This document shows, piece by piece, positions 45,079-59,303 of a stretch of DNA of 64,000 bases. The position numbers were made by a program, and so were the translations under genes. The stretch's first letter is position 1, and every line of letters begins with the position of its first letter. The notes beneath the pieces were generated by a model, which did not search any database, was not told the origin of the DNA, and worked only from the letters and a program-made list of their open reading frames with translations. The DNA is from Octopus vulgaris (Eukaryota), in NCBI GenBank assembly GCA_951406725.2, contig OX597814.1, forward strand, positions 14,880,001 through 14,944,000, given 5' to 3'.

Positions 45079-45606
45079 GTTCTCTCCAGCATCGTCATAT
45101 TTCTATTCAACATCGCCTTTCTTGTATCATCGGCATCAATTCCAGACCAGTGTAAAATACCAGCCAATCTGAAGGTTCAGTACCAGACATTGTCCCGTGC
45201 AGCAATTGGCAATAACTTTTTACTACCAGTTGAAAGAGCTCCGGTCGGAAGTAAGCAGAACTCCCAGACAGACGGGGATAAAACTTGCCCAACGTCTCCT
45301 TCATCCAGCGATATCATCCGTGAACGTTCAACCTGCCCTTGGTACCTGAACATTACCCATGATTCAACAGTTTTCCCTCCATCGCGCACCGAAGCCGTGT
45401 GTCGCTGTAACGACTGCTTCGATTCAGACAACAACCACGAATGTGTGATGGTATATACTCCAATGACTGTCCTTAAACGTACCGATGAATGTGTTGATGG
45501 ACTGTACGTGTATAAACCAAAAGTGATTGAAGTAGCCACAGCTTGTGCATGTGCACGAAAAGCCAACTCACGAAAAGGTGGAAGCAACGATGAATACGAG
45601 TCGTAA
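45079..45606 (+). CDS. IL17: IL-17-like cytokine, main coding exon (180-aa precursor with exon 1)
   Basis: Acceptor tttttctctgacag; VLSSIVIFLFNIAFLVSSA signal; ERSTCPWY..D..VFP..RTEAVCRC..C..HEC..VY..MTVLKR..C..VATACAC; AATAAA at 45808. Confidence 0.95.
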   Translation, partial: VLSSIVIFLFNIAFLVSSASIPDQCKIPANLKVQYQTLSRAAIGNNFLLPVERAPVGSKQNSQTDGDKTCPTSPSSSDIIRERSTCPWYLNITHDSTVFPPSRTEAVCRCNDCFDSDNNHECVMVYTPMTVLKRTDECVDGLYVYKPKVIEVATACACARKANSRKGGSNDEYES

Positions 45607-46022
45607 GAACGGATAGAATAACGATGTATAAATATGTAATCCAGACGTTATTCAATATTTTATGAAAGATTAAGTCGACCACCAAGTGGTTACCATAACT
45701 TGCAACATATGTTGCATAAAACACATGTTTTATATAATTCCATATTTTATAAATATAGTAATAATATGATCATAATAATATATTTGTAAAATTTATTAGC
45801 CAAATGAAATAAAATATTTTGTCCACTTAAAATGTATTCGGGTATCGTGAGTTATATCGTGAATGTATATATTCACGTAAGCACATAGAGCCCGAGTGTA
45901 ACAGATATATACACACGCATACATGCATGCGTACATTCACACATACATACCTACATACATAAATACCTATGCTTACACTCATATATATCCATATGTGCGT
46001 AAATGCGTATATATATATAATA

Positions 46023-46345
46023 AGACCCCCTTCGGTCATGAATGACCATGGGATTGCACCTAGAAAGTTACCCTCCTAGACACAAGTCCGGGCAAGGTTT
46101 TTTTTTTTATGGAAGACCAGCAGTCGCCCATGCATACCAGCCTCCCCTCTCCACGCCACCAGTGTTATCCAAGGGAAAGACAAAGGTCGATACAGCTTGG
46201 CACCAGTGACGTCGCAACTCATTTCTACAGCTGAGTGAACTGGAGCAACGTGAAATAAAGTGCCTTGCTCAAGAACACAACACGCAGCCCGGTCCGGGAT
46301 TCGAGCTCACAACCTCGACGCTCTAACCACTGAGCCATGCGCCTT
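46023..46345 (-). mobile_element. tRNA-derived SINE, family D
   Basis: Minus head GGCGCATGGCTCAGTGGTTAGAGCG; not present at the mirror position in the right arm. Confidence 0.85.
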
Positions 46346-46959
46346 CACATATATATATATATACATATACACATATACATATATATATATATACTTAGAG
46401 ATATATAATTACACACATGCATACACACATATATACATGCTTACATGCGTACGTGCATACATTACCTCTTCCGGGAAGGGCTTATTATTGTTTTAAGAAT
46501 TTTATAAAATTCTTATTTATAGAATGTATTAAAGGTCTATTATAATGCGTTCATATAATTTTTCGAAGTATATAATTTCGTGTATGTATAAGAAACTTCG
46601 AAATTATTTTTTCCTTCTTATATAATATTTTGTAATACAGTAAATGAAGAAGAGACATATAAAAATGTGTTGAATTGTAATTGGATCCATAAGATTGAAT
46701 AAATTTTATATTATAAACGCAGAATTGTTCTTTGTTTCTTATGTATCTTATATCTTAGATTTATAAGCATACACACTTTAACTCACTCTAGGGATCAATG
46801 AAGAATGTCTAGGAGATATTGTTCATAAAATGCAAATATGCAGTCGAAACTGTTTGTGTTTTTCTCCTGTATACTCTGCAACGCAAGGTGAAGGTTAAAT
46901 GAGATTGCAATTGCATTTGGCGAAATACTGAGATACGGTCATTCGGTAAATCTATGCAA

Positions 46960-56529: not shown

Positions 56530-57085
56530 GAGTGAGAGAGCAGTTCATGCCATCAAAGTGACACTGGGGTAAAATATACGAAGCCCAATATACCCATCAT
56601 GACTACCCGTCTGATAAGGGTACACCAGGCACATGCATCACAACCATATGTGCGCGACATGGTGATCTCATATCAAGATAAACAGCACATGACCTTGCAG
56701 GTGGGGCCCAGTTAGAATTTTCTTCAGGTTGAGTAGCCCATCCCGCTCAAACGGTCCCTGAATAAGGGTTGTTTAAGGATGTTGAAAGAACCACCCATGT
56801 TTCCAGAGGTGAATTATTCAACCCCCAAAGAATCCCTCTCAACACATGGCTATGATGTTCCCCCACTTCTTCTGCTCGTGATCAGAGATGCACATATCGT
56901 CAGCCACTAAGGGACATGCTCAACTGGTTAAGGTCAAACAACTGACAAGCAAATCTGTGGTATTGAGCAGAATATTTGCTGTAGCCCATCTTTTATACCA
57001 AGACAAAACAATGTACATGATAACACTTCCAATCAGTTAAGATCAGAAGCCATGAGAGCCACTGCCTGGTACTGCATCAGGACAT
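56530..57085 (-). mobile_element. (AAT)n-associated element E
   Basis: Reverse-complement full copy between (ATT)n runs. Confidence 0.85.
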
Positions 57086-58775
57086 TTACTGCATCAGGGC
57101 ATTTACTGGGCATTTATTATTATTATTATTACTATTATTATTATTATTATTATTATCATTATTGTTATCATTATTATTATTATTATTATTATTATCATTA
57201 TTATTATTATTATTATTATTATTATTATTATTATTATTTTTATTATTATTATTATTAATATTATTATTATTATTATTATTTTTATTATTATTATTATTAT
57301 TATTACTTTTATTATTATTTCTTTGTAACACACTGTAGGTAAGAATGCACCAGAGTCTTTACTTATCTGTAAAGTCACAACAAGGACCTCGGACAGATAA
57401 TATTTGCCTTAAGTGATGCGCTGCGCCCAATAAGGCTGCTTTTGGCAAGACATCAGTTGTCTTAAGAAGTTTTGTAGCTTCAATGGGATTTATCCCAACG
57501 CTCCGATCACCACTGGTATGAATTTTACATTACCCTCTAGCATTCCACACACTATTATTATCATCATTATCATCATCATCATCATCATCATTATTAAGAT
57601 TGCTATTGTTATATCGTTGTTTTTCTTGTTGCTGCTGCTGTTGTTTTTATCATTGTCATGTGCGTTTGAGCCCTAGGGCTGTAATCACGCTGGCGCACTA
57701 TATTATTGATTTTGAATAGATTGCATAGTTTTACCGAATGACCGTATCTCAGTATTTCGCCAAATGCAATTGCGATCTCAGGTAACCTTCACCTTCCGTT
57801 GTAGGGTATAGAGGAGAAAAACACAAGCAGTTTCGATTGTATATTTGCATTTTATGAACAATATCTCCTGGACATTCTTCATTCATCCACAGAGTAAGTT
57901 AACGTGTGTATGCTTATAAATCAAAAATATAAAATACGAAATAAACAAAGAACAATTCTGCATTTATAATATAAACTTTATTCAATCTTATGCATCCCAT
58001 TACAATTCAGTACACATTTATATATCTCTTCTTTATTTACTGTATTACAAAACATTACATAAGAAGAAAAGATATCGAACATTCTTATGCATATAGGAAG
58101 TTATACACTTCGAAAAATTATATGAACGCATTATAATACATTGTATAAATAAGAATTTTATAAAATTGTTAAAATAATAAAAATAATAATAAGCCCTTCC
58201 CGGAAGAGGTAATGTATGCACGTACGCATGTAAGCAGTTATGTATATGTGTATGCATGAGTGTAATTATACGTTTCTAAGTATATATATGTGCGTGCGTG
58301 TGTGTGTGTGTGTTTGCATACGCATTTACGAACATATGGATATATATGAGTGCAAGCATAGGTATGTATGTGTAAATATACGCATGCATGTATGCGTGTG
58401 TATATATGTTACAATAGGGCTCATATGTGCTTACGTGAATATATACATTAACGATATAACTCACGATGACCGGATACTCGGGTATTTTTTAGTTTTTTAT
58501 AAATATACTGTTGCACAGTTGAATATTAAATTATTCATTTTAAGAGGACAAAAGATTTTATATCATTTAGCAAATAAATTTTACTAATAGATTATTATGA
58601 TGATGTTATTACTTCATTTATAAAATATGCAATTATATAAGATGCAAAATTGTATGTGTGTTTTATGCAACATATGTTGCAAATTATGATAACCACTTGG
58701 TGGTCGACTTAATCTTTCATAAAATATTGAATAACGTCTGGATTACATATTTATACATCGTTATTCTATCCGTTC

Positions 58776-59303
58776 TTACGACTCGTATTCATCGTTGCTT
58801 CCACCTTTTCGTGAGTCGGCTTTTCGTGCACATGCACAAGCTGTGGCTACTTCAATCACTTTTGGTTTATACACGTACAGTCCATCAACACATTCATCCG
58901 TACGTTTAAGGACAGTCATTGGAGTATATACCATCACACATTCGTGGTTGTTGTCTGAATCGAAGCAGCCGTTACAGCGACACACGGCTTCGGTGCGGGA
59001 TGGAGGGAAAACTGTTGAATCATGGGTAATGTTCAGGTACCAAGGGCAGGTTGAACGTTCACGGATGATATCGCTGGATGAAGGAGACGTTGGGCAAGTT
59101 TTATCCCCGTCTGTCTGGGAGTTCTGCTTACTTCCGACCGGAGCTATTTCAACTGGTAGAAGAAAGTTATTGCCAATTGCTGCACGGGACAATGTCTGGT
59201 ACTGAACCTTCAGATTGGCTGGTATTTTACACTGGTCTGGAATTGATGCCGATGATACAAGAAAGGCGATGTTGAATAGAAATATGACAATGCTGGAGAG
59301 AAC
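58776..59303 (-). CDS. IL17: IL-17-like cytokine, main coding exon (palindromic twin of 45079-45606)
   Basis: 8 nucleotide differences in 528 by hand alignment; 3 amino-acid changes (R/I, D/G, N/D); same acceptor. Confidence 0.95.
   Translation of the reverse strand, partial: VLSSIVIFLFNIAFLVSSASIPDQCKIPANLKVQYQTLSRAAIGNNFLLPVEIAPVGSKQNSQTDGDKTCPTSPSSSDIIRERSTCPWYLNITHDSTVFPPSRTEAVCRCNGCFDSDNNHECVMVYTPMTVLKRTDECVDGLYVYKPKVIEVATACACARKADSRKGGSNDEYES

Follow-up and report, generated by a model that had tools for sequence, protein, structure and literature searches.

The stretch of DNA analysed here (hereafter the window) comprises 64,000 nucleotides (nt) of Octopus vulgaris, contig OX597814.1 of assembly GCA_951406725.2, positions 14,880,001 to 14,944,000 of the forward strand, and holds a palindrome of about 22 kb, each arm of which carries one two-exon IL-17 gene with intact reading frames, the pair lying tail to tail. 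Recurrent non-allelic gene conversion probably keeps a tract around exon 2 of these twins alike, and selection contributes beside it. A first-pass annotation of the window had proposed arm-to-arm homogenisation confined to the exon; homogenisation is not confined to it, and is probably not a matter of the two arms only. Both twins lie above the curated Pfam IL17 cut-off (58.8 and 61.2 bits against 24), and the left exon-2 protein shows 98-99% identity to IL-17-like proteins of Octopus sinensis and 77-81% to those of O. bimaculoides; by these matches the window is octopus DNA belonging to an IL-17 cluster.

A mosaic of divergence between the arms

Comparison of the window with itself gave inverted collinear matches running from 40623/63219 inward to a centre at 53569-53573. 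The features of the palindrome are the following (UTR, untranslated region; LTR, long terminal repeat):

40623..53568, + strand: left arm, from inverted collinear matches, interrupted by arm-specific mobile elements and microsatellites
53574..63219, - strand: right arm, from inverted collinear matches
53569..53573, no strand: centre, a 5-nt loop without unique spacer (hairpin of 53500-53645, z -18)
42341..42355, + strand: left coding exon 1 (MKTST, then a GT donor), an exact match to the N-terminus of P0038
42356..45078, + strand: left intron, alignable up to 44980, 156 of 727 columns differing from the right intron
45079..45606, + strand: left IL-17 exon 2, 175 codons plus stop (PF06083, 58.8 bits)
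61433..61447, - strand: right coding exon 1 (MKTST, GT donor), 0/15 differences from left exon 1
59304..61432, - strand: right intron
58776..59303, - strand: right IL-17 exon 2 (PF06083, 61.2 bits)
44981..45725, + strand: homogenised tract 1, left copy (the final 98 nt of the intron, exon 2 and about 120 nt of 3' UTR), 13/742 differing (1.75%)
58657..59401, - strand: homogenised tract 1, right copy; a single merged contig at 58709-59381 in sequencing run X4
41505..41857, + strand: homogenised tract 2, left copy, non-coding, spanning the junction of two ~500-bp tandem units 5' of exon 1; 9/325 differing (2.8%), exact run of 104 nt
61953..62290, - strand: homogenised tract 2, right copy, ends approximate
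41208..42212 (+) in the left arm and 61582-62600 in the right: the two ~500-bp tandem units
45740..53567, + strand: inner stratum, about 10.4% divergent from the right arm, within which no other change-point was found
52460..53567, + strand: left half of a central dead non-LTR retrotransposon fragment (RVT_1 hit short of the cut-off, E 1.3e-4; alignable to reverse transcriptase relatives)
53575..54705, - strand: right mirror half of the same fragment, 102/1075 columns differing from the left half

Hand counts had put the differences in exon 2 (45079-45606, +, against 59303-58776, -) at 8 of 528 nt, 5 of them silent, and this was confirmed with the codons as they stand; the silent changes amount to 4.1% of 122.5 synonymous sites, and the three replacements are R53I, D112G and N163D. 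The near-identity reported just after the stop was also found (2 of 116 aligned nt differ), as was the greater divergence of an intron patch (45/210 at 43864-44100), while exon 1 with its 5' flank differs at 8/132 positions. The 108 nt beside the centre, given as about 18 differences, hold 19, but this sample is unrepresentative as a baseline: the whole central element differs by 9.5% and the inner stratum at 293/2812 positions (10.4%), so that a fair baseline is about 10%, not 17%. As to confinement to the exon, tract 1 begins 98 nt inside the intron (3/98 differ) and extends some 120 nt into the 3' UTR, and tract 2 is a second, non-coding patch.

Patchiness was analysed by permutation scans and segmentation, after dropping columns within 3 of a gap or inside tandem repeats. 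A 554-bp element flanked by (AAT)n runs (95-98% alike between arms) was excluded from the divergence counts, because it also occurs elsewhere in the window, in copies 92-98% alike, and is not placed in the same order in the two arms; the block 48219-48632 was left out on account of its order. Segmentation of 5382 non-coding and four-fold degenerate columns resulted in six blocks, with divergences of 16.6% (40623-41504), 2.8% (41505-41857), 10.3% (41858-42367), 21.8% (42368-44980), 2.3% (44981-45739) and 10.4% (45740-53567). Differences at neutral-class sites number 7/310 for the exon 2 tract, 293/2812 for the inner stratum and 156/715 for the intron. The best 300-column window of non-coding and four-fold sites in the inner part held 7 differences, compared with a permutation mean minimum of 17.9, and none of 5000 shuffles reached the observed value, either for all columns or for the inner part alone; the variance among 100-column bins was 18.2 versus 8.4 (P=0.0002). 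These results indicate patchiness beyond chance.

Tract 2 shows a related pattern among the upstream tandem units. Three of the four units are nearly identical over about 180 columns and the fourth is not; the expected pairing of units holds at 17 of 20 informative sites, and the similarity in tract 2 runs counter to it. We also observed, in the same units (41208-42212; 61582-62600), a core of about 100 nt nearly identical in three of the four, which makes the units a possible enhancer, perhaps with conversion from one unit to another.

Probable exchange between copies, selection and assembly

The grouping of relatives bears directly on exchange between copies. In a protein tree of 71 rows the twins and three O. 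sinensis genes formed one clade (100/100), whose sister clade consisted of three O. bimaculoides loci (five rows, 100/97), and neighbouring genes such as P0006/P0008 paired across species in the same tree. Gene trees had been suggested as a check, and the IL-17 genes of this clade do group by species; joining the left gene to each O. bimaculoides gene was rejected in all three approximately unbiased (AU) tests (p<1e-39). In O. sinensis as in O. bimaculoides, the clade consists of two closely similar genes and one more, and the annotated proteins of both species include a third near-identical gene. Clade members differ at 1-14 of 175 residues within species and at 33-43 between species, compared with 22 in the single-copy sister pair, and 22 residues are fixed between the window/O. 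sinensis group and the O. bimaculoides group, which indicates that the protein is free to change.

Three residues, across two genomes only, are shared between paralogues. At site 53 the O. bimaculoides residue is kept in the right copy of the window and the O. sinensis right copy has the residue of its paralogues; at site 112 it is kept in the left copy of the window and the O. sinensis left copy has the paralogues' residue; and at site 56 the right copy of the window carries the left-locus residue, from which the O. sinensis right copy differs, V56 being common to the left locus and one O. bimaculoides gene. These sites may represent variants that have spread part-way between copies. In the absence of conversion, two exact reversions and one parallel change would be needed.

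Contigs from four public runs (X1, X4, X10, X20) were compared with the right arm at 57610-59610. In X1, contigs identical to the right 3' flank (0/297 and 0/393; depth 42-45) and separate left-like contigs (depth 40-43) were found, both types ending at 58719, and merged exon contigs started at 58690 (1/279 and 4/223 differences; depth 178-191). X4 had right-like and left-like flanks (depth 83-100) and one contig of 673 nt at 58709-59381 (8 differences; depth 206) that matches the tract found in the window. X20, which is more distant, gave two flank contigs per side (depth 12-18) and merged exon contigs of depth 29-48, which differ from the window at 60/668 nt (9%), and in X10 a single 732-nt contig had a depth of 11 where a flank piece had 4.8. 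Each of X1, X4 and X20 thus has its 3' flank in two distinct contigs, with merged exon contigs at roughly two to four times the depth. An exon hidden by the assembly and 10% divergent would be expected to have a contig of its own, as the flanks do; none was found among the 32 of 2056 pieces listed. As single-copy flanks are kept apart and the exon is merged, a polishing artefact is unlikely.

The O. sinensis annotation is independent of the window and bears on the same question. The odd first exon of P0001 matches left intron DNA exactly at window position 44294 (+, 8/8), and that of P0037 matches DNA upstream of the right gene at 62864 (-, 27/27), which places both loci in O. sinensis as well; a single residue of 175 separates the two proteins. 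Copies this similar are easily overwritten, and base accuracy may be imperfect, to judge from a frameshift in a homopolymer of the paralogue at 32.4-32.9 kb. Nevertheless, that cross-mapped reads overwrote one exon during polishing, or that the palindrome is a false duplication, is extremely improbable given the X1 flank contigs that stay separate up to 58719 and then give way to a merged exon contig, the same shape in X4 and X20, the O. sinensis annotation with both loci and near-identical proteins, and the eight exon 2 differences that remain in the window. Collapsed polishing, which the first-pass annotation had named as a possible source of the exon identity, is therefore argued against by both contigs and annotation.

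Exchange between the twins is supported, but the term arm-to-arm is too narrow, because the third near-identical gene and the contig depth in X1, which suggests more than two copies, point to a wider set; a third copy, located outside the window, is probably involved. Over 58690-59275 the exon contigs of X1 reach about four times the depth of a single flank, against about twice in X4 and X10, and the copy number of the clade may vary.

Low divergence could also arise without any exchange, if protein, codons, splice region and 3' UTR were all under purifying selection and mutation were lower in GC-richer DNA. The low-divergence patches do coincide with likely functional DNA (exon 2, exon 1 and the upstream repeat), and the 3' UTR is alignable (74%) to a distant paralogue at 32306-32725. 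On the other hand, the 33-43 residues that differ from O. bimaculoides, as opposed to 22 in the single-copy sister pair, are not what selection on the protein would leave. Towards X20, the tract differs by 9%, not significantly below the flank (35/304, P=0.24), and scaling by the X20 tract/flank ratio selection alone predicts 50-60 differences between the twins, whereas 13 are seen (P<1e-9). Sites 53, 56 and 112 and the near-identity of three of the four tandem units in tract 2 are also left unexplained. Selection without exchange is accordingly regarded as improbable. The earlier view that protein selection alone would be insufficient holds inasmuch as conversion is the best explanation, with the qualification that selection contributes too.

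Some of the data weigh against conversion and have been taken into account. Synonymous divergence (dS), proposed as a check, is lower in the exon pair than elsewhere, although on synonymous sites alone the difference is weakly significant (5/122 vs 170/1751, P=0.036); when adjoining non-coding sites are added it reaches 10/336 (P=1e-5), with boundaries picked after looking. Compared with the right arm, X4 shows 8/673 differences in the tract and 28/709 in the flank (P=0.001), a roughly threefold greater conservation of the tract which indicates that selection contributes, and with this ratio selection alone predicts 23 differences between the twins where 13 are seen (P=0.016 only). The twins differ by 1.75%, and each is no closer to the other than to the merged contig of X4 (1.2%); thus, the greater closeness of paralogues within species holds against O. 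bimaculoides and X20 (9%) and fails against the close relative X4. Finally, the contig evidence covers 40 of the 378 variant rows and 32 of the 2056 pieces; rare variants are lost from contigs, and contig depth is a rough guide. Recurrent conversion nonetheless finds support in the species-wise tree, the residues shared across paralogues and the merging of contigs over the exon in four runs; what does not stand is its restriction to the exon.

Codon 48 (45220-45222; 59160-59162) deserves separate mention. Leu48 is TTA in one twin and CTT in the other, O. bimaculoides has Phe, and X20 has the left letter at one of the two places and lacks it at the other. The two apparently silent differences may be two separate Phe-to-Leu changes, in which case the silent count would drop to 3, hinting at selection.

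The following mechanism would account for the pattern. A break in one copy would be repaired using the other copy as template, so that short tracts would be copied repeatedly between the twins and probably a third copy outside the window; repeated copying of this kind would allow new variants to spread from copy to copy. Selection would hold exon, splice region and UTR alike enough for pairing, and hence conversion, to continue, an interaction like that described in PMC3924832, while intron and flanks would have gathered insertions and microsatellite changes and so escaped conversion.

Age of the palindrome and neighbouring features

The central non-LTR element, which we take to be of RTE type, offers indications on the age of the pair. 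In O. bimaculoides, the model P0040 includes a fused fragment of this retrotransposon, 65-83% identical to the two halves, and a four-residue deletion found in both halves and in P0040 is absent from 14/14 other relatives, which suggests that the element adjoined the clade before the species split. A search with the retrotransposon piece gave no named octopus copies among the matches, and the common deletion could therefore be a subfamily trait. At one site the O. bimaculoides residue is shared with the right half only. The O. sinensis annotation has both loci and X4 has both flanks, while the signs from O. bimaculoides are indirect and mixed.

Taking conversion as given, we somewhat favour an old inverted pair whose inner part was re-copied from the centre; the 5' part (17-22%) is possibly older than the O. 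bimaculoides split. In this scheme, which is the less supported part of the mechanism, fold-back copying at a break inside the retrotransposon would have produced the near-spacerless centre, and the inner part (10%) would be younger than the 5' part. The tiny central loop fits fold-back priming at a break as known in yeast (PMC10622511), if octopus behaves alike. A competing history, possible although rather unlikely, is a young palindrome (10%, after the O. bimaculoides split), the gene having multiplied separately in each species and an older third copy having later supplied the 5' half of one arm, which leaves conversion to explain just the 2% tract. Here the evidence is divided. The central halves share a stop and several residues that are absent from P0040, and at several sites they side with each other and not with the O. 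bimaculoides copy; later duplication may thus account for some of the grouping by species, and this speaks against an old pair. The 3' flanks of X20 differ from the right arm at 35/304 (11.5%) and 34/243 (14%), compared with 10% between left and right arm, so that the two contigs have similar distances from the right arm, and they carry the left letter at the flank sites listed. Together with the residues of the central halves, these distances make the inner part seem younger than the O. bimaculoides split. Conversely, the same 2+1 gene pattern in both species, V56 in both the left locus and one O. bimaculoides gene, the P0040 fusion with its deletion and the residue shared with the right half only do not fit a young palindrome. 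The intron letters of X20 mix left-like and right-like in the 40 variant rows listed of 378, and the pair is therefore not dated by them.

Other features of the window were noted. Three further IL-17 genes, all on the - strand, lie at 11520-12059 (exon 2 open), 32399-32927 (with a frameshift at a T run, either a pseudogene or a sequencing error) and 4250-4960 (a broken pseudogene with a microsatellite insertion). The public models P0001, P0037 and P0040 seem to carry wrong first exons (intron DNA, upstream DNA and a retrotransposon piece, respectively), while the MKTST exon is intact in both arms of the window. A search with an NF-kB-like consensus pattern gave no match in the gene region of either arm. 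The 554-bp element between (AAT)n runs occurs at 28988-29541, 29705-30258, 47580-48135, 48659-49213, 56530-57069 and 13590-13952, the five full copies being 92-98% alike, and looks like a young microsatellite-targeting element. An unclassified 400-500-bp repeat has four copies 76-86% alike (40025-40436, 43272-43682, 51858-52350, 54733-55245), three belonging to the region of the left arm and the fourth to that of the right, with a 120-nt part 94% alike between arms.

Known systems and the octopus pair

Clusters of IL-17 genes in invertebrates are taken to have expanded independently by tandem duplication, and such duplication is the description given of the known expansion in O. bimaculoides (PMC8353272), in passages where the terms conversion and concerted had no matches. 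Literature listings showed no report of conversion or of a palindrome in octopus IL-17 genes. Should conversion reset the clock, protein trees would mislead on copy ages and orthology in part of the cluster, and variants called or expression counted from short reads would lump together two to four loci of the clade. A broader and doubtful extension is that species-specific IL-17 expansions of octopus are partly old loci disguised by conversion: a spacerless palindrome would re-copy its whole inner part from the centre, as well as short exon tracts, variants would sweep three genes at once, and the clade would change faster between species (33-43/175 vs 22/175 in single-copy genes) yet stay uniform within them. 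The locus is compact and open to test: divergence is nested at three levels, the dead elements provide a neutral reference, and some variants appear to have been caught midway in their spread between copies.

The likeness to mammalian Y palindromes put forward in the first pass is a poor match. Both have inverted arms with gene copies homogenised by conversion, but Y arms average 73-344 kb, are 0.02-0.03% divergent throughout and flank a unique spacer (PMC3403216), while the octopus arms are about 10-13 kb, 2-22% divergent in patches and joined by a 5-nt loop. Conversion has been proposed in another cephalopod for the reflectin and tyrosinase clusters of the argonaut, other gene families, in a paper whose main text makes no mention of IL-17 (PMC9635652), and it has been shown among invertebrate immune paralogues, again of another family, for APL1 of Anopheles funestus (PMC9222773). 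The HMA4 triplet of Arabidopsis halleri resembles the octopus genes in having three copies, with mosaic divergence and long introns escaping conversion, a pattern that has been modelled there; unlike them, it is a head-to-tail tandem in a plant for which population data exist (10.1101/2025.10.29.685298).

Closer parallels are mirror-image pairs. The Drosophila Hsp70Aa/Ab and Amy-p/Amy-d genes are likewise linked in mirror image and closer within than between species, and concerted evolution of amylase is largely limited to coding regions (PMC3924832); the octopus pair departs from them in its fast protein change between species, its long, decayed and spacerless palindrome and the seeming involvement of a third copy. 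The Dlx genes of Capitella teleta, also from an invertebrate and tail to tail, show mosaic conversion of a partial exon and adjoining intron, although that tract is a short part of the conserved homeobox and the 745-nt octopus tract covers nearly the whole coding sequence (PMC3199776). By analogy, the octopus twins would work like these mirror-image Hsp70/amylase and Dlx pairs and not like a Y-type palindrome. Mirror-image gene pairs kept alike by conversion are already known from flies and worms, and the octopus IL-17 pair most likely adds a new case to them.

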